Source of the DNA: Candidatus Eiseniibacteriota bacterium | GTDB taxonomy: Bacteria > Eisenbacteria > RBG-16-71-46 > DASYSL01 | Reading direction: 5' to 3' | Length of the DNA: 43,550 bases | NCBI GenBank assembly: GCA_035259005.1 | Contig: DATFWU010000181.1 | Location: 1 to 43,550 of the forward strand | Part shown: one piece after another, positions 6,838 to 28,797 of the stretch | Layout: every line of letters starts with the position of its first letter | Position numbering within the stretch: the first letter of the stretch is position 1 | The notes under the pieces: model-generated | What the model saw: only the letters and a program-made list of their open reading frames with translations | Databases searched by the model: none | What the model was told of the DNA's origin: nothing | Translations under genes and position numbers: made by a program

Positions 6838-7626
6838 TCACTTCTTCGACAACTCGATGGTTGTTCCCGGCGCCAGGCCGAGCCGCGTGCCGGCGTGCGC
6901 GTCGGCGACGGCGATCTCCAGGCGGCCGGTCGAGCCGATCAAGGCGAGGGCCGTGCCGGTGGGCGCGTCGCCGTAGGTGCGCGAGAGGCCTTCGATCTCG
7001 GCCGTGCCGGCCTGCACGCGAAGCTTCGCCTTGCCGAGCCACTCGCGCAGATCCCCTTCCTTGAGATCCGTGATCGCATTGCCGAAACGATCGACGTAGA
7101 CCACGTGCGCTTGAGCCCGGTCTCCGTCGAGACTCGGCTGCGAGCGCGGCAAACGAACCGCGTCTTGTGTCAGCTCGCCCACGCTCGCGAACGCCGCTCC
7201 CTCGGCGAGGGCGGCCGCCGCCGGCGCGAACAAGTCGCGTCCGTGGAACGTGGCCGAGAGCGGGCCCGCGCCGACCCGCTCGGGATCGATCTCGCGTACC
7301 TCGGCGCCCGGCTCCTCGAGGGCCGAAGTCAGAACCCCATTGTCCGGTGCCACGAACATGCGCTCGGCGGCGCGCACGGCGATGGCGCGGCGCTCCGTGC
7401 CCACGCCGGGATCCACGACCACGACGAACACGGACTCGGGCGGATACCAGCGCCAGGTCTGCTCGAGGAGAAAGTCGGCGTGGGCCACGTCGCCCGGGGG
7501 CACGGTGTGCGAGAGATCGACGAGGGTGGATTCGGGAGCGCGCGAGAGCACGCTGCCCTTCATGGCCGCCACGTACCAGTCGGTGGCGCCGAAGTCGGTC
7601 AGGAACACGACGCAGGAGATCATCAT
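6838..7626 (-). CDS. SAM hydrolase / SAM-dependent halogenase family protein (DUF62, SAM hydroxide adenosyltransferase-like)
   Basis: From MMISCVVFLTDFGATDWYVAAMKGSVL. The family is characterised by TDFG..D.YV..MKG and ATFHGRDLFAP. The track ORF 6838-8613 is a run-on. The start overlaps the GT9 stop by 4 nt. Confidence 0.8.
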   Translation of the reverse strand: MMISCVVFLTDFGATDWYVAAMKGSVLSRAPESTLVDLSHTVPPGDVAHADFLLEQTWRWYPPESVFVVVVDPGVGTERRAIAVRAAERMFVAPDNGVLTSALEEPGAEVREIDPERVGAGPLSATFHGRDLFAPAAAALAEGAAFASVGELTQDAVRLPRSQPSLDGDRAQAHVVYVDRFGNAITDLKEGDLREWLGKAKLRVQAGTAEIEGLSRTYGDAPTGTALALIGSTGRLEIAVADAHAGTRLGLAPGTTIELSKK

Positions 7627-8720
7627 ACGGGCATCGCGGCGGGCTTGGCGGTGGCGGGCCAGGGCGTGCGGCGCGCCAGGATCTCCTGGAGGGCGTGCCA
7701 CACGAAGTCGGGGCCGATGGCGCGAAGACAGGAGGTGTGCGAGCAGACGTCGAGATCGCAGGGGCTGCACCACACGCCCGCGTACACGGCGCGGTGGCCG
7801 TGGCTCGCGGGGTAGGGGAAGAAGCGCTCGGGCTGGTTGCGGCCGAAGATGCCGACCGTCGGCGTGCCCACGGCCACGCTTACGTGCACGGGGCCGCTGT
7901 CCGGTCCCACGAACGCGTCGCACGAAGCGAGGAGGGCCGCCAGCTCGCGCAGGTCGAGGCCGGTGACGGCCGTGCAGCGGTCGCTCTTTGCGTCGGCGAC
8001 GATGCGCTGGGCGAGCGCTTCTTCGCCCGGACCTCCGAGCACCAGCACGCGCGCCTCGGCCGCCGCGCGGCGTGCCACCTCGGCGTAGCGCGTCGGATCC
8101 CATTGCCGCGTCGGCCAGCGGGCGCCGGGGTGGATGGCCACGTGGCGCTCGTCGGCCAAGAGAGCGAAGCGCGCGCGCACGGCGGCGATCTCGCGGGCGT
8201 GCACGGGAAGGGAGGGCACGGCGTGAGGGTCCACCGCCCAGCCTAGAGCGGCGATCGAAGCAAGATGCCAGCGCACCGCGCTCTTGCCCTCGTGCAGCGG
8301 ATGGCGGTTGTAGACGGCGCTCCGCCAGCCCTTGCCGCGATAGCCCACGCGCACCGCCGCACCGGTCGCCGCCGTCCACACCGCGGTGCGCGGATTGCAG
8401 AAGAGATCGAGCACCAGGTCGTAGCCTCCGCGCGCGAGCCTGGCGAAGAGCCGCGCCGACTCGCTGGCCTTGGGCTTGCGCGGGACGGCGATGATTTCGG
8501 CGAGACGAGGGTCGCCGTCGAGGAGCTGCGCGTACGGCTGCTCGGCCAGGAAGTCCACCTTGAGGCCGGGGGCGAGCCGCACGAGATGCTCGAGCACGGG
8601 CAGCACGAGGCACAGATCGCCCGCGAAGCGCGGACGAATCAAGAGCGCGCGTCGGATCGAGGCAGGATCGACCGCGCGCGACGGCTCGGGACGGGGTGGT
8701 TCGCTTGACGGCTTCGCCAT
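7623..8720 (-). CDS. Glycosyltransferase family 9 (heptosyltransferase-like)
   Basis: From MAKPSSEPP at 8720. It has LLIRPRFAGDLCLVLPVLEHL and GPDSGPVHVSVAVGTPTVGIFG, typical of GT9. The track ORF 7623-9878 is a run-on extension antisense to the next gene. Confidence 0.85.
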   Translation of the reverse strand: MAKPSSEPPRPEPSRAVDPASIRRALLIRPRFAGDLCLVLPVLEHLVRLAPGLKVDFLAEQPYAQLLDGDPRLAEIIAVPRKPKASESARLFARLARGGYDLVLDLFCNPRTAVWTAATGAAVRVGYRGKGWRSAVYNRHPLHEGKSAVRWHLASIAALGWAVDPHAVPSLPVHAREIAAVRARFALLADERHVAIHPGARWPTRQWDPTRYAEVARRAAAEARVLVLGGPGEEALAQRIVADAKSDRCTAVTGLDLRELAALLASCDAFVGPDSGPVHVSVAVGTPTVGIFGRNQPERFFPYPASHGHRAVYAGVWCSPCDLDVCSHTSCLRAIGPDFVWHALQEILARRTPWPATAKPAAMPV

Positions 8721-8816: not shown

Positions 8817-10049
8817 ATGAGCGAGCGCCCCGACCCGTCGAGGACGAGCAGCCGAACGCGCGCCGTGCACGGCGGGCGTGCCGAAGGTCCGGGTCCGGTC
8901 GTCGCTCCCCTGGTCCAGTCGTCGACCTTCGCGTTCGCCGATCACGACGCCATGCTCGCGGCCTTCCACGCCAAGGATCAGGGCGTCGTCTACTCGCGCT
9001 ACTCGAATCCGACGCTTATGGCCTGCGAAGAGCGTCTCGCGGCCGTCGAGGGGGCGGAGGCTTCTCTGGCGTTCGCCTCGGGCATGGCCGCCATCACCTC
9101 GGCCGTGCTCTCGTTCGTGCGCGCGGGCGAGCGCGTGCTGGCCCAGCGCGAGATCTACGGCGGCTCGCACGAGTTCTTCTCGCACTGGGCGCCCCGCCTC
9201 GGCATCGAGGTCGACTGGTTCGGCGCCAACGACGAGAAGGAGCTCGCCGCCGGCCTCGCGCGCCGGCCCGCGGTGGTCTATCTCGAGACGCCGACCAACC
9301 CGACTTTGCGTTGCGTCGATCTGCGCGACGCCGCCACCCGCGCCCGCGCGGCGGGGGCGGTGAGCATCGTCGACGGCACCTTCGCCTCGCCGATGAACCA
9401 GCGTCCGCTCGATCTGGGTATCGATCTCGTGGTGCACAGCGCCACCAAGTATCTGGCCGGCCATGCCGATCTCGTCGCCGGGTGCGTGTGCGGGGCGCGC
9501 GACAAGATCAAGACTCTGTGGCGGGCCCGCAAGCTCTTCGGCGGCACGCTCGACCCGCACGGCGCCTTTCTGCTCGAGCGCTCGCTGCGCACGCTGGCCG
9601 TGCGCATGGAGGCGCACAACACGAACGGCCTCGAGGTAGCGCGCTTCCTGGCCGGCCACGCCGCCGTCGAGCGCGTGTATTATCCCGGCTTGCCCTCGCA
9701 TCCCGACCACGAGACGGCGCGCCGTCAGATGGCGGGGTTCGGCGGCATGGTGACGGTGAGCGTGCGCGGCGATGGCCAGGCCGCGATCCGTTTCGCCGAG
9801 AGCTTGCAGCTCTTCCGCCTGGCTCCGAGCCTGGGCGGCGTCGAGAGCTTGGTTTCGATTCCGGCCACCTCGTCTCATTACGCGCTGAGCGCCGCCGAGC
9901 GTGAGCGCGCGGGCGTGCCGGACAACATGGTTCGTCTGTCTTTGGGCATCGAGGACGCGGAGGATTTGATCCGCGATCTCGATCAGGCGTTGGGGAGAGC
10001 GGGTGGCCGCGCCGCGGCCACGGCAGCAGCGGAGCGAGGCTCCGCGTGA
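8817..10049 (+). CDS. Cys/Met-metabolism PLP-dependent enzyme (cystathionine gamma-synthase/beta-lyase/methionine gamma-lyase family)
   Basis: 410 aa. It has YSRYSNPT, SGMAAI and the PLP-Lys motif HSATKYLAGHADLVAG, plus LGGVESL and VRLSLGIED. Confidence 0.85.
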   Translation: MSERPDPSRTSSRTRAVHGGRAEGPGPVVAPLVQSSTFAFADHDAMLAAFHAKDQGVVYSRYSNPTLMACEERLAAVEGAEASLAFASGMAAITSAVLSFVRAGERVLAQREIYGGSHEFFSHWAPRLGIEVDWFGANDEKELAAGLARRPAVVYLETPTNPTLRCVDLRDAATRARAAGAVSIVDGTFASPMNQRPLDLGIDLVVHSATKYLAGHADLVAGCVCGARDKIKTLWRARKLFGGTLDPHGAFLLERSLRTLAVRMEAHNTNGLEVARFLAGHAAVERVYYPGLPSHPDHETARRQMAGFGGMVTVSVRGDGQAAIRFAESLQLFRLAPSLGGVESLVSIPATSSHYALSAAERERAGVPDNMVRLSLGIEDAEDLIRDLDQALGRAGGRAAATAAAERGSA

Positions 10050-10799: not shown

Positions 10800-11966
10800 T
10801 TGATCTCCCACGCACGCCGCCCGACCGTTCTCGTCGCCATGTCGGGCGGCGTCGATTCTTCGGTGGCCGCGGCCCTGCTCTGCGAGCGCGGCTACGACGT
10901 GATCGGCGCCACGCTCAAGCTCTGGTGCTACGAGGAGCGTGACCCCTCGCCGCGCGCCTGCTGCTCGCTCGAGGCCATCGCCGACGCGCGCTCGATCGCC
11001 CTGCGCCTCGGCTTCCCGCACTACGTCCTCGACTACAGCGCGCCGTTCCAGAGCCGCGTGATCGAGCCTTTCGTGCGCGGGGTTCTCGAGGGCACGACGC
11101 CCTATCCCTGCGCCGCCTGCAACGCCGACCTCAAGTTCGGGCGCCTGGTCGAGCAGGCGCGGGCGGTGGGCGCGGCATTCGTGGCCACCGGCCACTACGT
11201 GCGCGCCGGCGAGGTCGAGCGCGGTAGTGGCCTGGAGCCCGCGCTGTTTCGCGCCGCGCACGCCGAGAAAGACCAGAGCTTCGCCCTCTGGCAGGTGGCG
11301 CGCGAGATCTTGCCCTCGCTTCTCTTTCCGCTCGGCGATCTCACCAAGGACGAGGTGCGCGGGCAGGCCGAGCGCCTCGGGCTCGCGCGCGTGGCCACCA
11401 AACAGGAAAGCCAGGATCTCTGCTTCGTGGGCGCGGAAGGCTACGCCGCGTTCGTGGAGCGGCAGGGCGGAGCCGGGGCGGCGGCCTTCGCTCCCGGGCC
11501 CATTCTCGACCGCGAGGGCCACCGGGTGGGCGAGCACGCGGGGCTCGCGCGCTACACCGTGGGCCAGCGCAAAGGCCTCGGACGCTCGATCGGCCGCGCC
11601 TCGGGCGGGCGACCGCTGTACGTGACGGCGCTCGAGCCCGAAGCCAACGCGCTGCGCGTGGGCACCGCCGACCAGCTCCTGGCGCGCGAGATGGTGACCG
11701 GATCCCTGCACTGGCAGTCGGCCGATCCGCCGCGCCCGGGCGAGTCTTTCGACGTGCAGATCCGCTACCGCGGCCCGACCGTGGTGGCGCGCCTGTGGCC
11801 GCGCGCGGGAGACGACTTCGCCGCCGGCTGTCGCCTCACGCTCGAGAGTCCGCTCCGCGCCGTGACCCCCGGGCAAAGCGCCGTGTTTTATCAGGCGGAA
11901 CGCTTGCTCGGCGGCGCCACCATCGAGCGACCCGAAGGTCAAGGAACCCACGCTCGGGGCCGATGA
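10800..11966 (+). CDS. mnmA: tRNA-specific 2-thiouridylase MnmA
   Basis: It has the PP-loop VLVAMSGGVDSSVAA, then ATGHY, DQSFAL and GQSAVFY. A TTG start is preceded by a GAAGGAAGG SD-like sequence. Confidence 0.9.
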   Translation: MISHARRPTVLVAMSGGVDSSVAAALLCERGYDVIGATLKLWCYEERDPSPRACCSLEAIADARSIALRLGFPHYVLDYSAPFQSRVIEPFVRGVLEGTTPYPCAACNADLKFGRLVEQARAVGAAFVATGHYVRAGEVERGSGLEPALFRAAHAEKDQSFALWQVAREILPSLLFPLGDLTKDEVRGQAERLGLARVATKQESQDLCFVGAEGYAAFVERQGGAGAAAFAPGPILDREGHRVGEHAGLARYTVGQRKGLGRSIGRASGGRPLYVTALEPEANALRVGTADQLLAREMVTGSLHWQSADPPRPGESFDVQIRYRGPTVVARLWPRAGDDFAAGCRLTLESPLRAVTPGQSAVFYQAERLLGGATIERPEGQGTHARGR

Positions 11967-15314: not shown

Positions 15315-16646
15315 ATGGTACCGGCGTCCCCGGTTGCGTCCGCGCCGCCGCATGTCGTCATCCTCGGCGGAGGTTTCGGGGGACTCTATGCCGCCAAGGC
15401 GCTCGCGCATACTCCCGTCCGCGTCACGCTGATCGACCAGCACAACCACCACGTCTTCCAGCCGCTGCTCTACCAGGTCGCGACCGCCGGGCTCTCGGAG
15501 CCCGACATCGCCGCTCCCATTCGTCACGTCCTGCGCAAGCAAGCCAACACGACCGTGCTGCTCGCCAAGGCGACCGCGGTGGATCCCGCGCGCCGCGTGG
15601 TTCGCCTCGACGAGGGTCAGGAGGTCGGCTACGACACCCTGATCGTGGCCACCGGCGCCTCGCATGCTTATTTCGGTCACGACGAGTGGGAGCCGTTCGC
15701 TCCCGGTCTGAAAACCGTGGATGACGCGCTCACCATGCGCAGCAAGATGCTGCTCGCCTTCGAGAGCGCCGAGCGCGAGAGCGATCCCGAGCGCCGCCGC
15801 CGTGCACTCACCTTCGTCATCGTGGGCGGCGGGCCGACGGGCGTCGAGCTGGCGGGGGCGATACGCGAGATCGCGCAGCGCACGATGACCGGCGACTTCC
15901 GCCACTTCGATCCGGCGAGCACGCGCGTGGTTCTGATCGACGCGGGCCCCAGGCTCCTGCCGGCCTATCCGCCGGATCTCTCCGCGCGCGCGCGCGAGCT
16001 GCTCGGCGAGCGCGGCGTCGAGGTGTTGACGGATGCGCTGGTCACGGCGATCGACGAGCACGGCGTGACGGCGGGGGGCAAGCGCATCGAGGCGGGCACG
16101 ATCTTCTGGGCGGCGGGGGTCAAGCCCTCGCCTCTCGGTCGCACGCTGGGAGTTCCTTTGGATCGCGCCGGGCGCGTGTTGGTCGAGCCCGATCTGACGA
16201 TTCCTGGTCATCCCGAGATCTTCGTCATCGGCGACCTCGCCGCCATGCGCACGAAGAAAGGCGACTGGGTACCGGGCGTGGCCCAGGGCGCGATCCAGAG
16301 CGGACGTCATGCCGCGCGTATGGTGGAGCGCCGTCTCGAGGGCAAGCCGACCGAGCCGTTTCGCTACAAGGATCTCGGCCTTCTCGCCACCATCGGGCGC
16401 AAGGCGGCGGTGGCCGACGTGGGGGGGCGACACTTCTCCGGATTTGTCGCCTGGTTCCTCTGGCTCACCATCCACATCGTGTGGCTGATCGGACACCGCA
16501 ACCGCATCGTCGTGCTCGTCGACTGGTTCTGGGCCTACATTCGCTATCAGAGCAGCGCGCGCGTCATCTTGACCGAGCCTCCGACGCCCGTCGATGTGCT
16601 TTCCGAGCCCGCTTCCAAGCCCGTGGAGCCGGCGCTTCGTGGCTGA
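15315..16646 (+). CDS. ndh: Type II NADH:quinone oxidoreductase (NDH-2)
   Basis: 443 aa with two dinucleotide-binding motifs (VVILGGGFGGLYAA; FVIVGGGPTGVELAG). It also has QPLLYQVATAG and a C-terminal membrane-association helix. Confidence 0.9.
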   Translation: MVPASPVASAPPHVVILGGGFGGLYAAKALAHTPVRVTLIDQHNHHVFQPLLYQVATAGLSEPDIAAPIRHVLRKQANTTVLLAKATAVDPARRVVRLDEGQEVGYDTLIVATGASHAYFGHDEWEPFAPGLKTVDDALTMRSKMLLAFESAERESDPERRRRALTFVIVGGGPTGVELAGAIREIAQRTMTGDFRHFDPASTRVVLIDAGPRLLPAYPPDLSARARELLGERGVEVLTDALVTAIDEHGVTAGGKRIEAGTIFWAAGVKPSPLGRTLGVPLDRAGRVLVEPDLTIPGHPEIFVIGDLAAMRTKKGDWVPGVAQGAIQSGRHAARMVERRLEGKPTEPFRYKDLGLLATIGRKAAVADVGGRHFSGFVAWFLWLTIHIVWLIGHRNRIVVLVDWFWAYIRYQSSARVILTEPPTPVDVLSEPASKPVEPALRG

Positions 16647-19189: not shown

Positions 19190-19759
19190 CTAGTTCGCGA
19201 GCGCGATATTCTCGCGCCCGTAGCGCAGCGTCTTCGCCATCCAAACGAGCTCGTTCAGGAACTTGTCGATGCGCGGCCCGTAGGCGGGATCGAGTGGCAC
19301 GCCTTCGTGGAAAGTCTTGTACGAGTGCGTGAAGTTGACATCCCAGAAAATGGTCACGAGCCCCAGCTCGCGCATCACCGGGAGGAGGTTTTCGATCACG
19401 CGCGTGCCGCCCCAGGGGCCGGCGGAGACGCCGACGACGCCCACCGGCTTGTGGATATATTCCTTGAGGCAGGAATCGAGCAGGTGCTTCAGCATGCCGG
19501 GGTAGCCGCGGTTGTACTCCGGCGTCACCACGATGAGCCCGTCGGCGTGTGTCATCCGCTCGGCGAACGTGGGGTTCTTGATCTGCTCGCCGGCGTCGTC
19601 GTTCGGTAGGTGGAGAGCGGCGACGTCGATCAGCTCCGTCTCCACACCGGGCCGGGAGCGCACGCGCTCGAGCACCGCGTGAGCCGCCGGTTCGCTGCGA
19701 CGACCCTTGCGCACCGTGCCGAGGACGATAGGGATGAATAGGGGGCGGGAATCGGCCAT
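19190..19759 (-). CDS. NADPH-dependent FMN reductase family protein
   Basis: From MADSRPLFIPIVLGTVRKGR. It has the characteristic ADGLIVVTPEYNRGYPGMLKHLLD. A GGAGG SD is upstream of the ATG at 19759. The track ORF 19190-19996 is a run-on. Confidence 0.85.
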   Translation of the reverse strand: MADSRPLFIPIVLGTVRKGRRSEPAAHAVLERVRSRPGVETELIDVAALHLPNDDAGEQIKNPTFAERMTHADGLIVVTPEYNRGYPGMLKHLLDSCLKEYIHKPVGVVGVSAGPWGGTRVIENLLPVMRELGLVTIFWDVNFTHSYKTFHEGVPLDPAYGPRIDKFLNELVWMAKTLRYGRENIALAN

Positions 19760-19805
19760 GAATCCTCCACTCCTTGGCGAATTTTTCCGTGTCCTTGAGG
19801 TTAAC

Positions 19806-20510
19806 ATGCTCGAAAATAGCGCCAGGACCGAACGTGCCTTGCGGAGACATCGACGGCCCCGCCTCGCGGTGATGCTCCTCGCGGTCGCGATGGCGGGATG
19901 CGCGCGGTCCAAACAAACGACACCGAACGCATCGCACACGGTTGGCGTGGACACCACCTCGCACGCGCCGATGGGAGAAGAACGCCCCGCGTCCAAGATG
20001 GAAACGATTTCACTCGAAGGGATGGAGCAGACACTGCGCTTTCGACTCTACGATTCGCGCCCTGCGGGTCTCGACGTTCCGTTCACCACCTACGTTCCCG
20101 ACGACATGGCGATTCGTTCGGCGCCGCGTGAAAACGGGGATCGCTTCGTGGCGCGCGCCGTGTTCGGGGGCCAGGTCGAGCCGCGGGCGTTTGTCGAAGC
20201 CCGTTTTCTTTCGCCGGGCGCGGCCCAGCAAGCCGCCGTGGAGTCGCTCGCTGCCTGGGCGCCCGACGAGCGGCCGAGTCCGCTCGAGAGCGGCAAGCGC
20301 TTCGCTTGGTCGGTGCGTGAGCGCTGGGTGCATCGCGGCTCGGGCGACACGGAAGTCGATGGCGTCGCGGGCCTGGGGCGCCACGCCGGCCGCTGGTTCG
20401 TGATTCACATCGAGTATCCACAGGAATACGGAGAAGGGCTCCTGCCACGCGTCGAGCGAATGCTCGAAGAGTGGCGGTGGGAGGACATGGGAGGGGGATT
20501 GGGATCGTGA
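19806..20510 (+). CDS. Hypothetical lipoprotein
   Basis: It has a basic n-region (RRHRRPR), a hydrophobic core and a lipobox (LAVMLLAVAMAG-C). I recognised no family. The stop overlaps the ATP-grasp start (GTGA). The start is uncertain (19806 vs 19872). Confidence 0.6.
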   Translation: MLENSARTERALRRHRRPRLAVMLLAVAMAGCARSKQTTPNASHTVGVDTTSHAPMGEERPASKMETISLEGMEQTLRFRLYDSRPAGLDVPFTTYVPDDMAIRSAPRENGDRFVARAVFGGQVEPRAFVEARFLSPGAAQQAAVESLAAWAPDERPSPLESGKRFAWSVRERWVHRGSGDTEVDGVAGLGRHAGRWFVIHIEYPQEYGEGLLPRVERMLEEWRWEDMGGGLGS

Positions 20511-21772
20511 AGCGTGTGCTTCTCCTCATGACGACGACGTCCTATCGCGCACAGGCTTTTCTGGAGGCGGCCGAGAGCTTGGAGCTCGAGGTCGTGATCG
20601 GCAGCGATCGCGAACAAGCGCTTTCGTTCGCCAAGCCCTCCGGGAATCTCACGCTCGATTTCTCGGCGCCGGAGATCTCCGCCCTGCGTGCGGCCGAGTT
20701 CGCGAGCGCTCATCCGCTGGACGCGGTGGTGGCAGCCGACGACGATGGCGTCGTGCTCGCCGCCCACATCGCGCGGGCTCTTGGCCTGCGGCATAACGCG
20801 TTGGAGGCCGTCGCGGCGGCCCGCTCGAAGCGCCTGTTCCGCGATCGCCTGGCGGCGGCGGGACTTCCCGGTCCGCGCTACTTCGAGCTGGGCCTCGACG
20901 CGTATCCGGTGGAAGCCGCGGCGAACGCGCCCTATCCCTGCGTGCTCAAGCCGCTCTCGCTCTCGGCCAGCCGCGGCGTGATCCGCGCCGACGACGAAGC
21001 TTCGTTTCTTGCCGCCTTCCGGCGCATCGCGGCTTTGCTCGAGCGTGTCGAGGCGCCTGGCGCCGCGGAGCGCCGCGGCATCCTGGTCGAGGAATACCTT
21101 CCGGGAAGCGAAGTGGCGCTGGAGGGCATCCTCACGAACGGCGCCATGCGCACGCTGGCCTTGTTCGACAAGCCGGATCCGCTCGAAGGTCCGTACTTCG
21201 AGGAGACGATCTACATCACGCCCTCGCGCTTTCCGCTGCCGGTGCGCGAGGCGATCGTGGAGCAGACGGCGGCGGCGGTGCGCGCCCTGGGGCTCGAGCA
21301 CGGTCCGATCCACGCCGAGATGCGCGTGAGCGAGCAGGGGGTACGCATGCTGGAGATCGCGCCGCGCTCGATCGGCGGCCTGTGCTCGCGTGCGCTCCGC
21401 TTCGCCGACGGCGTGTCGCTCGAGAGCCTGATCTTGCGCCACGCTCTCGGTGAGAACGTGTCGTTGCTCGAGCGCGAGTCGCGCGCCTCGGGCGTCATGA
21501 TGATGCCGATTCGCCGGGGGGGTACTTTGCGCAGCGTCACGGGGCTCGATCGCGCCTTGCGAGTTCCCGGCATCGACGACATCCGCATGACGATCCCGGT
21601 GGGGCAGCGCGTCATCCCGCTTCCGGAGGGAGCGCGCTATCTGGGTTTCCTTTTCGCGCACGGGGACCGGCCCAGCGAGGTCGAGGAGTCGCTGCGGCGC
21701 GCCCACGCCCAAATCGCCATCGAGATCGATTCCACCGATGCAGGACTACCCTGCGGCGAGCGCGAGGCGTAG
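20507..21772 (+). CDS. ATP-grasp domain ligase (L-amino-acid-ligase/carboxylate-amine ligase-like), substrate unknown
   Basis: From VKRVLLLMTTTSY. It has a pre-ATP-grasp Rossmann-like N-terminus, YPCVLKPLSLSASRGV, VEEYLPGSEVALEG, and GPIHAEMRV...MLEIAPRSIGG. Confidence 0.8.
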   Translation: MKRVLLLMTTTSYRAQAFLEAAESLELEVVIGSDREQALSFAKPSGNLTLDFSAPEISALRAAEFASAHPLDAVVAADDDGVVLAAHIARALGLRHNALEAVAAARSKRLFRDRLAAAGLPGPRYFELGLDAYPVEAAANAPYPCVLKPLSLSASRGVIRADDEASFLAAFRRIAALLERVEAPGAAERRGILVEEYLPGSEVALEGILTNGAMRTLALFDKPDPLEGPYFEETIYITPSRFPLPVREAIVEQTAAAVRALGLEHGPIHAEMRVSEQGVRMLEIAPRSIGGLCSRALRFADGVSLESLILRHALGENVSLLERESRASGVMMMPIRRGGTLRSVTGLDRALRVPGIDDIRMTIPVGQRVIPLPEGARYLGFLFAHGDRPSEVEESLRRAHAQIAIEIDSTDAGLPCGEREA

Positions 21773-21781
21773 GATCGGGAC

Positions 21782-22384
21782 ATGGTTGCCATCACCGAGT
21801 CGGCGCGCGACAAGGTTCTCGAGATCCTGAAGGACGGCGACCGCCACGGCGTCGCACTCCGCGTGGCCATCACGGGACGCGGTCGCGGGCCGGGCGGCTT
21901 CGGCTACGAGCTGGAGTTGATCGAGGAGGGCGAGAAGGCGCCCGACGATCTGGAGATCGACGCCGGCGGCTTCAAGCTCATCGTGGACGCCATGAGCGTG
22001 CCCAAGCTCGAGGGCGCGGTCGTCGATTATGTCGACGACCCCATGGACAGCGGGTTCAAGATCGAGAACCCCAACTCGTTCTTCGAGGATCCTGTCGCGG
22101 TACGCGTTCAGCAGATTCTCGACGATCAGATCAACCCGGCGGTGGCCGACCACGGTGGCTTCGTCATGCTGCTCGACGTCAAAGACGACACCGCCTACAT
22201 CCAGCTCGGCGGTGGCTGCCAGGGATGCGGTATGGCCAACGTCACGCTCAAGCAAGGTGTCGAGGTCATGATTCAGCGCGCGGTACCCGAGATCAAACAC
22301 GTGGTCGATTCTACGGACCATGCCTCGGGGACGAATCCGTACTACCAGCCGGCCAAGGGCGGAGGAGCCTCGCCCCTCGCTTGA
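21782..22384 (+). CDS. nfuA: Fe-S cluster carrier NfuA-type (Cys-less A-type N-domain plus Nfu C-domain)
   Basis: 200 aa. It has a HesB/IscA-like N-terminal half without Cys. The C-terminal Nfu domain has HGGFVMLLDV...LGGGCQGCGMA. Confidence 0.85.
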   Translation: MVAITESARDKVLEILKDGDRHGVALRVAITGRGRGPGGFGYELELIEEGEKAPDDLEIDAGGFKLIVDAMSVPKLEGAVVDYVDDPMDSGFKIENPNSFFEDPVAVRVQQILDDQINPAVADHGGFVMLLDVKDDTAYIQLGGGCQGCGMANVTLKQGVEVMIQRAVPEIKHVVDSTDHASGTNPYYQPAKGGGASPLA

Positions 22385-22386
22385 GG

Positions 22387-23790
22387 ATGCGGGACGCGAC
22401 TCCTCTTCCCAGCGCGAGCCCCATGCTCGTCGTTCTTCTCTCTACCTACGATCTCGGTCGCCAGCCCTTCGGACTGGCTTCGCCTTGTGCTTGGCTTCGC
22501 GAAGCAGGCTTCGACGTGCGCACGAACGACGTCGCGGTCGAGCCGCTCGACGAGGAGGCGGTGCGCGCCGCCGGTCTCGTCGCGATCCATCTGCCCATGC
22601 ACACGGCGACGCGGCTCGCGGTGCGCCTCCTTCCGCGCGTGCGCGCCCTCAACCCGACTGCCCGGCTCGTGTGCTACGGCCTGTACGCACGGCCCAACGA
22701 GACCTACCTGAGGAGCCTGGGCGTCGACGACGTGCTGGGCGGTGAGTACGAGGCGGACCTCGTGGCCCTGGTGCGAGGCGGGGCGGCCGATGCCGCCGGC
22801 GCCACCCTCCCGCGTCTTGCCTACCGCGTGCCCGACCGCAGCGGTCTGCCGCCGCTCGAGCGCTACGCCCGGCTCGTCGACGCCGGCGGCCGCGAGCGCG
22901 TCGTGGGCTACACGGAGACGACGCGCGGCTGCAAGCACGAGTGTCGCCACTGCCCCGTGGTTCCCGTGTACGAGGGCCGCTTTCGGGCCGTGCCTCGTGA
23001 GGTCGTGCTTGCCGACATCCGCCAGCAGGTCGAAGCGGGCGCAACACACATTACCTTCGGCGATCCTGACTTCTGGAACGGTCCGACACACGCGCTGGCC
23101 ATCGTGCGCGCCCTGGCCGTCGAGCACCCGGGCGTCACCTACGACGCCACGATCAAGATCGAGCACCTGCTCCGCCACGCCGAGCATCTGACCGAGCTGG
23201 CATCGACCAGCTGCCTCTTTGTTACCAGCGCTGCCGAGTCGCTCGACGACCGGGTACTGGCGCGCCTCGACAAGGGCCATACGCGCTCCGAGTTCGAGCG
23301 CGCACTTGAGCTGTGCGGCGAGGCCGGGCTCGTCCTCCAACCCACTTTCATCGCCTTCCATCCGTGGATGAGCCGCGCGAGCTACCTCGAGTTCCTGGAG
23401 TTCCTCGAAGCGCACGATCTGGTCGAGGCCTTGCCCCCGATCCAGCTCGTCCTGCGCCTGCTCGTGCCGGCGCGCTCGAAGCTTTTGGGGGTGGAAGGGG
23501 CGCGGACTTGGGTCGAGCCGTTCGAGGCCCGGCGTCTCGTGCACCCTTGGCATCATCCGGATCCCGAGGTGGATGCTCTGCACGAATCGGTGCACGTGCT
23601 CGTGCAGGAGAGGAGCGCCGCGGGCGCTAGCCGCCGTGAGATCTTCGATGCCGTCTGGGAGGTGGCGCATGGCCGCGCTCGCGAGCTGGGCCACGGCACG
23701 CAATGGACGGAGCGCACGCCGGTCCCCTATCTCACCGAGCCCTGGTATTGCTGAGCGGAGCCCATCGAGGGGCCGGCGGCTCCTTTCTAG
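22387..23790 (+). CDS. B12-binding-like radical SAM protein with a probable selenocysteine (UGA at 23752-23754) in a C-terminal C-U-A-E-P tail
   Basis: It has a Rossmann-like N-domain (LVVLLSTYDLG...LVAIHLPMHT...LVCYGLYA) and the radical SAM motif TRGCKHECRHCPV (CX3CX2C). The track ORF ends ...TEPWYC at a TGA. Reading through in frame gives AEPIEGPAAPF then TAG at 23788-23790. The start at ATG 22387 is 3 nt after the nfuA stop. Confidence 0.75.
23757..23783 (+). promoter_or_regulatory. Candidate bacterial SECIS hairpin directly downstream of the in-frame UGA
   Basis: GGAGCC (23757-23762) pairs with GGCTCC (23778-23783). The interior can form CG/CG with a G-rich apical loop (AGGGGC). Folded by eye only, and the geometry has not been checked against a SECIS model. 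Confidence 0.4.
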
Positions 23791-23931
23791 ACAGGTATGA
23801 AAATCGACTTGTGTCAGGGCCCATGGTGAATCAACATGCGGGGGATCGATTAGGGTCCTTTGTCTCCTCCAGGCGACCCCATCCCCGTTAGCCCTCGCAA
23901 GAAGCTCCCGGCATGCCCCCGTGGAGCTGTC

Positions 23932-25005
23932 ATGACTCGCTCATACAATCTGACCCAGCTCAGCGACGGAGCCCTTCTTCAGGCTTTGACCTCTCTGTTC
24001 GATCAAGACCGCGCTACGACGGCCATGCTGCTCGCTCATATCGCCGAAGTCGATGTGCGATCTCTGTATGCAGCAGCCGGATATCCTTCGATGTTCGTCT
24101 ATTGCGTGGAGAAGTTTCACCTCTCTGAGGATGCGGCTTGCAATCGAATTCATGCGGCGCGTACGGCCCGTCAGTTTCCCCAGATCTTCGAAGCCATAGC
24201 CGAGGGACGTCTTCACCTGAGCGGCGTTCGGTTGCTGGCGCCCCATCTGACTCCCGAAAACGCCGACGAGTTGCTTCTCTTGGTCAGGTACAAGAAGAAA
24301 TCCGAAATCGAACGCATACTCACCCAACGGTTCCCGCTCGCTTCGTCACCCCGAATCATCCAAAGCATTCGTCCAATTCCTACGGCTCCAGTCGGGGTAT
24401 CCGCCCCGGGGCGGATTGATGGTGGCCTCGGACTCTTCCAGGAGTCTTCTACCGGCATGACAGCTGGACCGGCCACCCCGGAACCACCTCACCCGGTGGA
24501 TGAGAGGTACTTTCTTCAGCTTACCGTTGCGAAGAGTACGCACGACAAGCTTCGCCGAGCGCAGCTCCTTCTCAGCCACGCTATTCCGTCAGGGAATGTG
24601 GAGCAGGTGCTAGATCGAGCCCTTGATCTACTTCTTGCCCAACTCGAGAAGCGGAAATACGCAGCCTCGAATCAACCACGGCAGCGTCCTCCCACCCAAA
24701 CCAGCGCGCGGAGTCGTCACATTCCAGCCCAGGTCAAACGCGCGGTCTGGCTTCGGGATCGGGGGCAATGCACGTTCGAGAACGAAACGGGCGACCGGTG
24801 CCCGGCCCGAAAGTTCTTGGAGTTCGACCACGTCGTACCCGTCGCTCGTGGGGGGAAAGCCACAGTGGAAGGGATTCGTCTGCGTTGCCGGGCGCACAAC
24901 CAGTTCGAAGCGGAGAAGGTGTTCGGAACAGAATATGTTCGTGGCAAGCGCCGGGCAGCGCGGGCACGCAGGGAACAGCACACGCAGAAGAGAGCGAGCG
25001 GCTAG
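23932..25005 (+). CDS. DUF222-like N-domain / HNH endonuclease
   Basis: From MTRSYNLTQLSDGALL. The C-terminal HNH nuclease motif is CTFENETGDRCPARKFLEFDHVVPVARGG...LRCRAHNQFEAE. ATG at 23932 is preferred over the TTG at 23860. Confidence 0.8.
   Translation: MTRSYNLTQLSDGALLQALTSLFDQDRATTAMLLAHIAEVDVRSLYAAAGYPSMFVYCVEKFHLSEDAACNRIHAARTARQFPQIFEAIAEGRLHLSGVRLLAPHLTPENADELLLLVRYKKKSEIERILTQRFPLASSPRIIQSIRPIPTAPVGVSAPGRIDGGLGLFQESSTGMTAGPATPEPPHPVDERYFLQLTVAKSTHDKLRRAQLLLSHAIPSGNVEQVLDRALDLLLAQLEKRKYAASNQPRQRPPTQTSARSRHIPAQVKRAVWLRDRGQCTFENETGDRCPARKFLEFDHVVPVARGGKATVEGIRLRCRAHNQFEAEKVFGTEYVRGKRRAARARREQHTQKRASG
24399..24416. repeat. 18-bp perfect palindrome ATCCGCCCCGGGGCGGAT (copy 1, inside the HNH ORF)
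   Basis: Exact self-complementary 18-mer, identical to the copy at 36742-36759. Confidence 0.9.
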
Positions 25006-25118
25006 AGACACCAAGATCGAGCCCGCGGTTCTTGGCAGGGGGCAACGGAGAGCCGGGACGTGTCTAGGAGGCATTCTCGCCTTGGCGAATCCTGCTTCTG
25101 GGCGCTAATCTAGGCCGC

Positions 25119-27443
25119 ATGCCCCGCGTCCGGTCCACCGGCCGAGCCACGAAACCGGCGTCCCCAGACGGCTCGGTCGGCGTCTCCATTCCCAAGCTCG
25201 AGGCTCACGAGAAGGTCACGGGGGCAGCGCTTTACCTGGACGATCTGCGGGTCCCGGGGATGCTGCACGGCCGCACCGTCCGCTCCACAGTGGCCCGCGG
25301 GCGTATCCGCAAGATCACGCTCGATCCAGCATTCGACTGGACTGGCGTCACCGTCGCCGACCACAAGGACATTCCGGGCGACAACGTCGTGGCGCTGATC
25401 GAGGAAGATCAGCCGCTCCTCGCCGCGCACGAGATCCGCCACGCCGAGGAGCCCATCCTGCTGCTCGCGCACGAGAGCGCCGAGCGGGTGGAGAAGGCGC
25501 TTCGCGCCGTGCGCATCGAGGTCGAGCTACTCGAGCCAGTGCTCACGGTCGAGCAGGCGCTTGCCGCCAAGCAGCTACTCTACAAGGACACGAACATCTT
25601 CAAGGAGATCCGGATCGATCGCGGGGACGCGGCCTCGGCGTTGCGGTCGGCGGGCGTGGCCGGCACGGTCCTGGTCGAGGGCACGTACCGAACGGGGCAT
25701 CAGGAGCAGCTCTACATCGAGAACAACGCGATGCTGGCCGAGCGCACGGAGGACGGCGGCCTCCTCGTGCGCGGCTCGCTGCAGTGCCCGTACTACGTGC
25801 ATAAGGCCCTGATGCGCGCCTTCGGCTTGCCGGCCGAGAAGGTGCGCGTGGCGCAGACGGTCACCGGCGGCGGGTTCGGCGGCAAGGAAGAGTACCCGTC
25901 GATGATCGGCGCCCATGCCGCGCTGCTGGCGTGGAAGAGCGGCAAGCCGGTCAAGATCGTCTACGACCGGCTCGAGGACATCGCTGCCACGACCAAGCGG
26001 CATCCGTCGCAGACGCGCATTCGCTCGCTTGTCGACCGGGACGGGTCGCTGCTCGCGCTCGATATCGACATTCTGATGGACGGGGGCGCCTACGTGACGC
26101 TGTCGCCCGTGGTGCTGTCGCGCGGGGCGATTCACGCCGCCGGGCCGTACCGCTGCGCCAACACGTCGATCCGCGCTCGCGCCGTGGCCACGAGCACCCC
26201 GCCCAACGGTGCCTTCCGGGGCTTCGGCGCGCCCCAGACGCAGTTCGCGATGGAATGTCACATGGATCGCATCGCGCGGCAGTTGAAGCTTGATCCCCTC
26301 GAAGTACGGCGCAAGAACGCGGTGCGGGAGGGCGACGTCACCCCGACCGGCCAGGTGCTGACCGAGAGCGTTGGCGCGCACGAGGTGCTCGAGCGCACCG
26401 TGCGGCGCTCGCACTACGAGGCCAAGCGCAAACGATACGCCCAGGAGAACGTGGCGGCCGCCAGGGCCGAGCGGGCCGGCCGGTTCGATGGGCGGGGCCG
26501 GCGGGTGCGCCGCGGCATCGGGCTGGCGCTCGTGTACCACGGCGCCGGGTTCACCGGCGGGGGCGAAGTGAAACTTGCCTCGCTCGCCGCCATCGACATC
26601 ACGCCGCGCGGGCGGCCGCGCATCCTCTCGGCGTCGACGGAAATCGGCCAGGGGACGCGCACGATCTTCGCGCAGATGGTGGGTGACGCGCTGGGCGTGC
26701 CCGCCGAGTTCGTGGAAGTCGAAACGCCCGACACGGGACTGGTTCCCGATAGCGGGCCCACCGTCGCCTCGCGCACCTGCATGGTCGTGGGCGGCATGCT
26801 GGTGGACGCGGCGCGCGAGATGAGAGCGGAGCTCACCGCGTTCCATGGCGCCGAGTGGAGCGACGCGCCAGGCTTCGAGCGCGCGGCCCGGCGTTACCTC
26901 GCCGAGCACGGCGCGCTGCGCGCCGAGAAGCGCTATCGCCGACTGGCCGAACTCTCGTGGGACGACGACACGTACCGCGGCGACGCCTACGGCGTGTTCT
27001 CGTACGCGGCGTGCACGGTCGAAGTCGAGGTCGACCTCGACACGGGAGAGACCACGCTCTTGAGCGTCACCACGGCGCACGACATCGGCAAGGCGATCCA
27101 TCCCGTGCTGGCCACGGGACAGATCGAAGGCGGCATCGTGCAAGGGCTGGGCTGGGCCCTGCTCGAGGATGTGCGCTGGAAGGACGGGCGTGTGTGGAAC
27201 CACCAGCTCACGAACTACATCATTCCGACCGCCGTGGATGTGCCCACGCTCGACGTCGAGATCGTCGAGATCCCGTACTCGCGTGGTCCCTTTGGCGCCA
27301 AGGGCGTGGGCGAGCTGCCCATGGACGCTCCGGCCCCGGCCGTGGTCTCGGCCATCGCGCATGCCACCGGCATCCAGATCGACGAAGTCCCCGTGCTTCC
27401 CGAAAAGCTCCTGCGCGCTCATAGCCAAGCGAGTGTCGGGTGA
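25119..27443 (+). CDS. Molybdopterin-binding large subunit of a xanthine dehydrogenase/aldehyde oxidoreductase family hydroxylase
   Basis: 774 aa. It has GGGFGGKE, AFRGFGAPQ, TEIGQGTRT and GAKGVGELP. Confidence 0.9.
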   Translation: MPRVRSTGRATKPASPDGSVGVSIPKLEAHEKVTGAALYLDDLRVPGMLHGRTVRSTVARGRIRKITLDPAFDWTGVTVADHKDIPGDNVVALIEEDQPLLAAHEIRHAEEPILLLAHESAERVEKALRAVRIEVELLEPVLTVEQALAAKQLLYKDTNIFKEIRIDRGDAASALRSAGVAGTVLVEGTYRTGHQEQLYIENNAMLAERTEDGGLLVRGSLQCPYYVHKALMRAFGLPAEKVRVAQTVTGGGFGGKEEYPSMIGAHAALLAWKSGKPVKIVYDRLEDIAATTKRHPSQTRIRSLVDRDGSLLALDIDILMDGGAYVTLSPVVLSRGAIHAAGPYRCANTSIRARAVATSTPPNGAFRGFGAPQTQFAMECHMDRIARQLKLDPLEVRRKNAVREGDVTPTGQVLTESVGAHEVLERTVRRSHYEAKRKRYAQENVAAARAERAGRFDGRGRRVRRGIGLALVYHGAGFTGGGEVKLASLAAIDITPRGRPRILSASTEIGQGTRTIFAQMVGDALGVPAEFVEVETPDTGLVPDSGPTVASRTCMVVGGMLVDAAREMRAELTAFHGAEWSDAPGFERAARRYLAEHGALRAEKRYRRLAELSWDDDTYRGDAYGVFSYAACTVEVEVDLDTGETTLLSVTTAHDIGKAIHPVLATGQIEGGIVQGLGWALLEDVRWKDGRVWNHQLTNYIIPTAVDVPTLDVEIVEIPYSRGPFGAKGVGELPMDAPAPAVVSAIAHATGIQIDEVPVLPEKLLRAHSQASVG

Positions 27444-27922
27444 GCGAGGTCACGCTCCGGCTCACGGTGAACGGCAAGACGCATCGGGTACGCGTGCCGC
27501 CCATGAAGCGCCTGCTCGACGTCCTGCGCGACGAGTGCAAGCTCACCGGCACCAAGGAAGGCTGCGGGGAAGGGGAGTGTGGCGCGTGCACCGTGCTGAT
27601 CGACGGGCGTAGCGCCAACTCGTGCCTCGTTCCCGCCGTGCAGGCCGACGGCGCCAAGATCCTCACCGTCGAGGGCTTGAGCAAGGACGGCCGCCTGTCC
27701 GCGTTGCAGCGCCTGTTCGTCGAGGGCGGGGGCGCCCAATGCGGCATCTGCACGCCCGGTATGCTGGTGAGCGCGCACGAGCTGCTGGCGCGCGCCAAGG
27801 GGCGCGTGCCGAGCGAGAACGAAGTGCGCGAGGCGCTGGCCGGAAACCTCTGCCGCTGCACCGGCTATCAAAAGATCGTGGACGCGGTGCGCGCCGCGGC
27901 GCGCGGCGGGAGAGCGTGGTGA
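27440..27922 (+). CDS. [2Fe-2S]-binding small subunit of the molybdenum hydroxylase
   Basis: 160 aa. It has GCGEGECGACTV, CGICTPGM and CRCTGY. The GTGA overlaps the large subunit stop. Confidence 0.9.
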   Translation: MSEVTLRLTVNGKTHRVRVPPMKRLLDVLRDECKLTGTKEGCGEGECGACTVLIDGRSANSCLVPAVQADGAKILTVEGLSKDGRLSALQRLFVEGGGAQCGICTPGMLVSAHELLARAKGRVPSENEVREALAGNLCRCTGYQKIVDAVRAAARGGRAW

Positions 27923-28797
27923 GAGCCGCACTCGGCGAGCTCGCGATCGCCAGGCCCAAGACGTTGGCCGAAGCGCTCGCCGAAGTCGACCCGAAGGCGC
28001 ATAGCACTCCTGCCGTGCCCATCGCGGGGGGCACGGATCTCTACGTCTATCTCAACGCCGGCACGCTCGAAGCCCCGCGCTTCGTCGACCTCTGGGGTCT
28101 GCGCGAGCTGCGTGGCATTCGCGAGAGTGGCGAGGCGCTCCGACTCGGCGCGACCACCACCATGTCGCAGATCCGCGAGCATCCGCTCTTGGCGCGTCGC
28201 TACCCCGCCCTGGTCCAAGCGGCGGCCGAGGTGGGAGGCCGCCAGATCCAGAATCGCGCCACCATCGCCGGCAACATTGCCAACGCGTCGCCCGCCGGCG
28301 ACTCCCTGCCCGCGCTTCTCGCCTACGACGCCATCGTGCAGGCGAAATCGGCGCGCGGCGGACGCACGCTGCCCTTCGAGAGCTTCTACCAGGGCTATCG
28401 CAAGCTTGCGCTCGCGCCCGGCGAGCTGATCGTGGCCGTCGACCTGCCGCCGCCCGCCGCGCGTGCCACGCACTTCTTCCGCAAGGTAGGAACGCGGCGC
28501 GCGCAGAGCATCTCCAAGGTGGTGTTCGCCGGGCTCCTGCGTCTCGATCGCGCCGGGCTCGTCGAGCAGGTGCGTCTCGCCTACGGCAGCATGGCGCCGG
28601 TGCCGCTGCGCGCCCGCGCCGCCGAGGAGGCGCTGCTCGACGAGAAGCTCAACGCCCCCACCGTGGCCCGCGCCCGCGCCGCGCTCGAGCGCGATCTCTC
28701 GCCCATCGACGACATCCGCTCGGATCGCGAGTACCGACGCCAGGTGGCAGGCAATCTGCTGGAGCAATTCCTCCGCCTCGCCGCGAAGCGCAAGTAG
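27919..28797 (+). CDS. FAD-binding medium subunit of the molybdenum hydroxylase
   Basis: From VRAALGELAIARP. It has the FAD motifs PIAGGTDLYV and ATIAGNIANASPAGD, and a CO-dehydrogenase-flavoprotein-like C-terminus (DIRSDREYR). The start could be GTG at 27916 or 27919. The track ORF 27622-28797 is a run-on. Confidence 0.85.
   Translation: MRAALGELAIARPKTLAEALAEVDPKAHSTPAVPIAGGTDLYVYLNAGTLEAPRFVDLWGLRELRGIRESGEALRLGATTTMSQIREHPLLARRYPALVQAAAEVGGRQIQNRATIAGNIANASPAGDSLPALLAYDAIVQAKSARGGRTLPFESFYQGYRKLALAPGELIVAVDLPPPAARATHFFRKVGTRRAQSISKVVFAGLLRLDRAGLVEQVRLAYGSMAPVPLRARAAEEALLDEKLNAPTVARARAALERDLSPIDDIRSDREYRRQVAGNLLEQFLRLAAKRK

Follow-up and report, generated by a model that had tools for sequence, protein, structure and literature searches.

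A CUAEP-tail radical SAM gene from Eisenbacteria that very probably encodes a selenoprotein, with a conserved hairpin following its in-frame UGA

The stretch of DNA analyzed here (the window) is an entire 43.5-kb contig (DATFWU010000181.1, assembly GCA_035259005.1) from a Candidatus Eiseniibacteriota bacterium, and all coordinates are positions in it. It carries a gene for a radical S-adenosylmethionine (SAM) protein whose open reading frame (ORF) was called as ending ...PYLTEPWYC at a TGA triplet, the last of four closely spaced genes (Table 1). The same frame continues past the TGA as GCG GAG CCC ATC GAG GGG CCG GCG GCT CCT TTC TAG, and with read-through the C terminus becomes WY-C-U-A-E-P-I-E-G-P-A-A-P-F. 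The best overall explanation, which we regard as very probable, is that the gene encodes a CUAEP-tail radical SAM selenoprotein whose UGA is recoded by means of a hairpin; the chemistry of the enzyme is a separate and far more tentative matter. A reading made earlier from the sequence alone (the sequence-only reading) had noted that the ORF ends ...YLTEPWYC at TGA 23752-23754, that the frame stays open to TAG 23788-23790, and that the call is 12 codons short. Translation bears out all three points, the extension being U plus 11 codons. The gene span of 22387-23790 given in that reading holds at its 3′ end but not at its 5′ end. A start at ATG 22423, used by the database protein P0001 (443 aa), is favored over 22387 by the N termini of homologs and by the family profile NF040546, whose match sets in only at residue 15 if the longer version is taken.

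The protein consists of a Rossmann B12-binding-like N-terminal domain, a radical SAM core with the motif CKHECRHC, and a C-terminal domain that ends in the vicinal Cys-Sec (selenocysteine) pair. The CX3CX2C motif, already pointed out from the sequence, was located at residues 170 to 177, and its cysteines C170, C174, and C177 were unchanged across all alignments. The N-terminal domain, described earlier as B12-binding-like, has fold neighbors with Rossmann domains, and its PF02310 (B12-binding) match was weak and below threshold (25.1 bits compared to a gathering threshold of 32.1). A further cysteine, Cys264, may be a third ligand beside Cys443 and Sec444.

With U modeled as C for profile scoring, the protein scored 623.9 bits (E = 1.6e-187) against NF040546, "CUAEP/CCAEP-tail radical SAM (seleno)protein," over profile positions 1 to 466 of 468, tail included, compared to a curated cutoff of 500 bits. 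On the basis of this score, the tail motif, and the radical SAM core, the gene is assigned to NF040546, and close homologs at NCBI bear the same name. The family name put forward in the sequence-only reading thus exists and fits this gene. In one scan, at least 592 species-level genomes gave a match, which makes this a large family, and it extends over many phyla. A 2022 preprint by Haft calls it uncharacterized, in agreement with the earlier statement that it has no experimentally defined substrate, and beyond that one sentence the literature that could be searched says nothing of the family (10.1101/2022.07.06.499078). The same preprint describes the CU motif as relatively rare and ties it to heavy-metal binding (10.1101/2022.07.06.499078), which goes against the earlier remark that a Cys adjacent to Sec is common. 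The family is absent from the table of prokaryotic selenoproteins in a 2026 review.

Further analysis was based on 80 orthologous loci taken from species-representative genomes and spanning Eisenbacteria, Methylomirabilota, Acidobacteriota, Chloroflexota, Latescibacterota, Calditrichia, Verrucomicrobiota, and Proteobacteria. Several trends were apparent. First, the codon following the Cys443 column was TGA in 64 of the 80 loci and a cysteine codon (TGC or TGT) in the other 16. Second, whichever codon stood there, 78 of the 80 loci went on in frame with AEP and then 3 to ∼30 more codons; two TGA loci had variant tails, VEP in L007 and TEP in L049. The homolog alignment that the sequence-only reading had proposed as a check thus gave Cys or UGA at this column in every locus, with AEP behind it in all but two. 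Third, among the 120 best database homologs, 112 stop at ...PWYC, seven run on as CCAEP plus ∼9 residues, and one is a fragment. Finally, TGA was the true stop codon used most often in the window, closing 16 of the 28 confidently called genes, the immediate upstream neighbor among them, which means that the organism does not read UGA as sense generally. The alternation of Cys and UGA, together with the in-frame conservation downstream, is not accounted for by a genuine stop, and comparison of the orthologous sequences indicates that the UGA is almost certainly decoded as selenocysteine.

The 64 UGA-type sequences (alignment A2, ungapped) share a short stem-loop after the UGA, with the 5′ arm at +16 to +22 and the 3′ arm at +28 to +34 from the U of UGA and a loop reading AGGUN, AGUU, or GGU. 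The stem covaries. The number of double-change cells was 50, compared to 20.5 ± 4.3 in shuffled alignments, and none of 500 shuffles reached 50; the covariation score was 0.318, compared to 0.194 after shuffling, and the stem did better than every slid register. A good example of this is the pair 23-39, which was AU in 25 sequences, GC in 19, and CG in 10. In a subgroup with Asp-Gln codons (GGGACC AGUU GGUCCC), the register has moved by one base and the stem is preserved. The stem also depends on the codon itself. In UGA loci, 6.34 of the 7 pairs formed and the contiguous stem length was 6.0; in the 15 Cys-type loci tested, the figures were 3.47 and 1.9 (Mann-Whitney p = 2.8e-8), although these loci retained the peptide motif AEPTxxQ.... 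A covariance model built from A2 found the element only at this site in the 1.3 Mb of fetched sequence and scored the Cys-type loci far lower. (Covariance model R1 did not bring the GACC-type subgroup into register; registers 49 and 50 were therefore counted by script.) By comparison across the family, the hairpin serves the UGA as a putative selenocysteine insertion sequence (SECIS). The earlier conclusion that the gene encodes a selenoprotein is thus upheld by the UGA/Cys alternation, the in-frame conservation of the tail, and the UGA-specific, covarying hairpin.

Two Cys-type (TGC) loci from Bryobacteraceae retain part of the stem, with 6 contiguous pairs in L048 (4327-4374) and 4 in L061 (11321-11368), compared to 0 to 3 in the other Cys loci. 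These remnants look like the result of a recent Sec-to-Cys replacement.

The sequence-only reading had placed the SECIS in a different inverted repeat, GGAGCC (23757-23762) and GGCTCC (23778-23783), beginning 2 nt after the TGA. The repeat is present, and its fold shares the 3′ arm with the conserved stem. Little separates the two folds in energy in the window: the GGAGCC/GGCTCC hairpin is the minimum free energy fold at -14.7 kcal/mol, and the stem at +16 to +34 is merely 0.2 kcal/mol less stable (-14.5 kcal/mol). It is improbable, however, that the GGAGCC/GGCTCC hairpin with its G-rich loop is the SECIS and that the +16 to +34 stem is nonfunctional. Although 78.9% of family cells are able to form the GGAGCC/GGCTCC pairing, the figure in shuffled controls was 78.8%, and the double changes and covariation score also equaled those of the shuffles. 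The GGAGCC arm is dictated by the conserved Ala-Glu-Pro codons, whereas the competing stem covaries, tracks UGA versus Cys, and has its loop placed as in fdhF of Escherichia coli. The absent covariation led us to reject the GGAGCC/GGCTCC repeat as the conserved SECIS. Compensatory changes, which had been proposed as a check, were thus found in the +16 to +34 stem and not in the stem first suggested. The proposed covariance-model search was negative with Rfam and positive with the model built on the family alignment.

A number of observations weigh against recoding of this UGA. The loop reads GGC in the window and in its two closest relatives, L001 and L081 (an Eisenbacteria metagenome assembly, GCA_036003365.1), compared to GGU or GUU elsewhere. 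Folding of the single sequence after the UGA gave a minimum free energy of -14.7 kcal/mol that was not exceptional (z = 0.36; 114 of 200 shuffles were as stable), neither of the two folds standing out from the shuffles, so that the case for the hairpin is a comparative one, and an Rfam search of 23650-23900 gave no match at the gathering threshold or at E ≤ 10. The window encodes no tRNA, SelA, SelB, or SelD; tblastn with the E. coli SelA, SelB, and SelD proteins found nothing meaningful in any fetched locus (∼1.3 Mb in all), and ARAGORN scans of the window and of 60 of the loci (L001 to L060) were negative for tRNA-Sec. There is also no report in the searchable literature of selenium incorporation for any family member. 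The sel genes and tRNA-Sec are not expected to adjoin the genes of client selenoproteins. A genuine stop, with the protein ending ...WYC and the downstream conservation owing to something else (e.g., a terminator, attenuator, or independent small ORF), would agree with the automated call, with RefSeq annotation (e.g., TRD_RS12835 of Thermomicrobium roseum), and with the Sec machinery being unseen in the window and fetched loci, but it is hardly tenable because the 16 orthologs with a Cys codon at this column continue in frame through AEP, the conservation past the UGA is in frame and at the amino acid level, the NF040546 profile covers the tail, and the hairpin is lost where the codon is Cys.

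A UGA-type member is also encoded on the megaplasmid of the type strain T. roseum DSM 5159 (L082, NC_011961.1, 7935-9440). The literature searched gave no word of selA on this megaplasmid. In RefSeq, this protein (TRD_RS12835) ends ...LTESWFC, and its frame continues TGA GCG GAG CCG, giving U-A-E-P-L-E-D-P-S-G-P-V..., with a hairpin GGACCC-GTC-GGGTCC at the family position. Its neighbors are genes for a pyridoxal phosphate (PLP) aminotransferase and a major facilitator superfamily transporter, with a GNAT N-acetyltransferase gene ∼2 kb downstream and no ATP-grasp gene. Because T. roseum DSM 5159 is cultured, this copy offers a direct experimental route.

Table 1. Positions in the 43.5-kb window of the radical SAM gene, its parts, and nearby genes
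Feature	Position	Strand	Remarks
Conserved protein gene, function unassigned	19806..20510	+	N terminus resembling a signal peptide with a lipobox, ...LLAVAMAGC; start uncertain, 19707-19998
ATP-grasp gene, L-amino-acid-ligase type	20507..21772	+	Pfam ATP-grasp_4 and LAL_C2; probable start GTG 20507, listed ORF start 20471
NfuA-like Fe-S carrier gene	21782..22384	+	IscA/HesB and NifU domains (PF01521, PF01106); TGA stop 2 nt before ATG 22387
Full-length gene of the probable radical SAM selenoprotein	22423..23790	+	455 aa, Sec at residue 444; alternative upstream start ATG 22387
Radical SAM [4Fe-4S] motif CX3CX2C	22930..22953	+	CKHECRHC, residues 170-177; PF04055, E = 1.2e-11
Cys264 (TGC)	23212..23214	+	Near-invariant in the CUAEP family, Val in ArsL (alignments)
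Vicinal C-U pair	23749..23754	+	Cys443, TGC 23749-23751; Sec444 (predicted), TGA 23752-23754
Tail and true stop	23755..23790	+	11 codons A-E-P-I-E-G-P-A-A-P-F, then TAG 23788-23790 (translation)
5′ arm of alternative repeat	23757..23762	+	GGAGCC; alternative pairing with 23778-23783
SECIS-type hairpin	23767..23785	+	+16 to +34 from the U of UGA; 7/7 pairs form in the window
Hairpin, 5′ arm	23767-23773(74)	+	GAGGGGC(C)
Hairpin, loop	∼23774-23778	+	(C)GGC(G)
Hairpin, 3′ arm	23778(79)-23785	+	(G)GCTCCTT
Molybdoenzyme, large subunit	25119-27443	+	
Molybdoenzyme, 2Fe-2S subunit	27440-27922	+	
Molybdoenzyme, FAD subunit	ends 28797	+	

In the window, the four tightly packed same-strand genes apparently form an operon with the radical SAM gene last, and the same four-gene arrangement is found in L081. 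At GTGA (20507-20510), the stop of the first gene runs into the probable GTG start of the ATP-grasp gene, and the operon may therefore open with this first gene. Its product is 78% identical to that of the same-position gene in L081, has no Pfam match, and seems to be confined to an Eisenbacteria-like clade. Among solved structures, the ATP-grasp protein is most closely related to the L-amino acid ligase BL00235 (3vot, E = 5.7e-34), and BacD comes next. The NfuA-like protein matches TIGR03341 at E = 1e-40 and is yet under its cutoff.

These partners recur in the family. Counts were made on the 56 loci that had 2.5 kb or more of flanking sequence to the left and to the right. An ATP-grasp gene adjoins on the same strand in 40 of them (downstream in 37, upstream in 3), and a gene for either NfuA or YggX, an Fe(2+)-trafficking protein (PF04362), adjoins in 36; DUF169 adjoins in seven. 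No other conserved neighbor was found at the 16 loci that are without ATP-grasp.

Comparison with other NCBIfam families points to ArsL. The ArsL profile (NF040542) was the second best, at 266.2 bits over residues 16 to 404, compared to 44 bits for the third-best family. The set used for comparison with ArsL consisted of RCCLKC-tail (NF040542) proteins from Bacillota plasmids, and the CUAEP proteins were 33 to 35% identical to them over ∼410 residues (E ∼1e-76). In MAFFT alignments, the vicinal CC of RCCLKC aligns with the CC or CU of the CUAEP tail, and motifs are common along the whole length. Judged from these alignments, the CUAEP family is the sister of ArsL. ArsL is the arsinothricin 3-amino-3-carboxypropyl (ACP) transferase, a noncanonical radical SAM enzyme that breaks the C-gamma-S bond of SAM, yields an ACP radical or organometallic species, and holds As(III) by three C-terminal cysteines (10.1101/2024.02.01.577332; 10.64898/2026.04.29.721666). 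Removal of its Cys tail leaves the iron and sulfur content unchanged (10.1101/2024.02.01.577332), which means that the ArsL tail binds no cluster. No solved ArsL structure was found in the PDB by sequence or fold. The fold of the CUAEP protein was modeled with AlphaFold2 on P0010, a natural CC-type ortholog 73% identical to the window protein (mean predicted local distance difference test score [pLDDT], 94.7; predicted template modeling score, 0.92; pLDDT of the tail, ∼80 to 83). The nearest solved folds were AprD4 (template modeling score, 0.71; E = 2e-19), TsrM, OxsB, and MgmA, and MiaB, MtaB, and lipoyl synthase were also among them.

The ars islands of Bacillus, Priestia, and Alicyclobacillus plasmids, in which RCCLKC-tail clusters lie, also carry an ATP-grasp gene, whose product is 26% identical to that of the window (E = 4e-20). 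In three of these clusters, from Alicyclobacillus, Bacillus cereus, and Priestia plasmids (L083, 1118-6272; L086, 1133-7269; L087, 2430-7275), a small AhpD-like gene of the carboxymuconolactone decarboxylase family precedes the ATP-grasp gene, and a gene for ArsN1 or a GNAT N-acetyltransferase is present too. The published description of the arsQML cluster does not include an ATP-grasp step.

Since the CUAEP family is the sister of ArsL, an ArsL-like mechanism is proposed. By analogy, the enzyme might transfer ACP from SAM to a soft, nonarsenic heteroatom held by Cys443-Sec444, a proposal that we put forward tentatively. The [4Fe-4S] cluster would reductively cleave SAM, probably at the C-gamma-S bond, giving the ACP fragment, which would then be moved onto the heteroatom substrate held by Cys443-Sec444, possibly with Cys264. 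The resulting amino acid would be ligated by the L-amino-acid-ligase-type ATP-grasp enzyme encoded in the same operon, and NfuA here, or YggX in most relatives, would keep the Fe-S cluster loaded. More doubtful still is the wider idea that the CUAEP protein, the ATP-grasp enzyme, and NfuA/YggX make up a widespread, unrecognized pathway in soil and sediment phyla, in which ACP would be placed onto a soft nonarsenic element such as selenium, sulfur, tellurium, or antimony held by Cys-Sec (perhaps with Cys264) and the new heteroatom amino acid would be built into a dipeptide. If true, this would be a second and much commoner case of noncanonical radical SAM ACP chemistry.

Several points count against ArsL-like chemistry. 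First, the protein falls short of ArsL membership, at 266.2 bits compared to the NF040542 cutoff of 450. Second, the window protein lacks the arsenite-binding RCCLKC tail and has YCUAEP... instead, and only two or three chalcogen ligands are on hand. Third, the 16 of 56 loci lacking ATP-grasp are mostly from Chloroflexota and include T. roseum. Finally, no genes for ArsN1, ACR3, ArsC, or ArsR were found near the 80 loci, in L081, or in the window; a search of the same set for ArsM gave one weak match, in L004, and a MIP channel and a GTP-binding protein had no match around the CUAEP loci. The absence of ars genes around the CUAEP loci disfavors arsenic as the substrate, the searches having come up empty but for the weak ArsM match in L004.

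Alternatively, the enzyme may carry out canonical 5′-deoxyadenosyl (5′-dA) chemistry, with the Cys-Sec pair as a redox swinging arm, comparable to the GCUG tail of mammalian thioredoxin reductase, that moves electrons or H atoms or forms a selenenylsulfide rather than holding a substrate. This is possible, and we would not put it higher than that. Most PF04055 members make a 5′-dA radical (10.64898/2026.04.29.721666), the tail has just two adjacent chalcogens, and the replacement of Sec by Cys in 16 of 80 loci is typical of redox selenoproteins. The nearest solved fold, AprD4, is likewise a canonical 5′-dA enzyme with a cobalamin-free Rossmann domain. However, of the characterized proteins ArsL is by far the nearest in sequence, and it does not make 5′-dA; the conserved ATP-grasp partner suggests an amino acid product; and the Haft preprint ties CU motifs to metal binding, not to thiol-disulfide redox (10.1101/2022.07.06.499078).

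It is less likely that Cys264, Cys443, and Sec444 ligate an auxiliary Fe-S cluster, possibly a sacrificial one, that is the source of sulfur or selenium for the substrate, in the manner of LipA or MiaB, and is rebuilt by NfuA or YggX. Three extra conserved Cys/Sec residues are available for such a cluster, the structural neighbors include MiaB, MtaB, and lipoyl synthase, and an NfuA-like or YggX gene adjoins in 36 of the 56 counted loci; NfuA regenerates the auxiliary cluster of LipA. However, an Fe-S cluster with a Sec ligand would be unusual, NfuA/YggX may just serve the radical SAM cluster in aerobic hosts, and the Fe/S content of ArsL was unaffected by loss of its tail (10.1101/2024.02.01.577332).

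A few other features of the window were noted. Between the radical SAM gene and a molybdoenzyme operon, 23791-25118 contains no confident gene, and the 381-aa ORF at 23860-25005 has no Pfam or NCBIfam match; the L081 counterpart of this interval is a 754-aa DUF2339 gene on the opposite strand, which has no tblastn match in the window. The operon that follows (25119-28797, + strand) encodes a three-subunit molybdoenzyme of the xanthine dehydrogenase/CO dehydrogenase family and is syntenic with L081. The listed start of its FAD subunit (27622) overlaps the previous gene, and the real start is therefore probably ∼27919, as in L081. A small cluster of genes for SAM and sulfur metabolism lies ∼12 kb upstream of the operon that includes the radical SAM gene. 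It comprises a 591-aa ORF (6838-8613, - strand) with a SAM hydroxide adenosyltransferase (DUF62) match in the last ∼260 residues only, the first ∼330 having no Pfam match; an adjoining gene for a Cys/Met-metabolism PLP enzyme (8817-10049, + strand); and, ∼750 bp past the latter, a gene for an MnmA-type tRNA 2-thiouridylase (10800-11966, + strand). A flavoprotein resembling NDH-2 and sulfide:quinone reductase is encoded at 15315-16646 (+ strand). Its best NCBIfam match is TIGR03169, "Nterm_to_SelD," at 119.6 bits compared to a cutoff of 310; with a score so far below the cutoff, it is no evidence for selenium metabolism.

Part of what is described here is already known. The family and its selenoprotein nature are curated, and the 12 missed codons are a known annotation artifact of the family. 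Four points were not met with in the literature that could be searched: the precise stem of the putative SECIS, conserved specifically with UGA; the place of the family as sister to ArsL with no arsenic genes around it; its recurrent ATP-grasp and Fe-S helper neighbors; and the UGA-type copy of T. roseum DSM 5159 with its truncated annotation. The short ORF call matters because it drops the likely catalytic Sec, as it does in 112 of the 120 best database entries, that of T. roseum DSM 5159 included. The kinship with ArsL outside any arsenic context, the usual ATP-grasp and Fe-S helper genes, and a cultured host make the chemistry testable, the questions being whether an ACP radical is formed and onto which substrate it would go.

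Several known systems can be set beside this gene. With the other members of NF040546 it shares the Sec/Cys alternation and the database truncation at the CU site, and no sequence difference sets it apart; the family itself is without a known substrate, structure, or experimental proof of Sec. The hairpin is like the SECIS of E. coli fdhF, which binds SelB, in lying directly past the UGA within the coding frame. The loop of the latter is GGUC at +22 to +25 (read from the genome), compared to AGGUC or AGUU at +23 to +27 in the family and GGC instead of GGU in the clade of the window, and the predicted family stem differs in being short (6 to 8 bp) and in overlapping the last codons and the stop. 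Among solved structures, AprD4, TsrM, and OxsB were the best matches to the predicted model. These enzymes have an N-terminal cobalamin-type Rossmann domain, which in AprD4 binds no cobalamin; they are only 14 to 20% identical, none has a Cys-Sec tail, and nothing points to cobalamin use by the CUAEP protein. ArsL has the same N-terminal domain, core, and C-terminal domain and a vicinal dichalcogen (CC or CU) near the C terminus. The CUAEP proteins differ from it in their hosts, chiefly Acidobacteriota, Methylomirabilota, Chloroflexota, and Eisenbacteria as opposed to carriers of ars islands, in an additional segment of ∼45 residues before the tail, and in having the conserved Cys264, which is Val in ArsL, together with the use of Sec.

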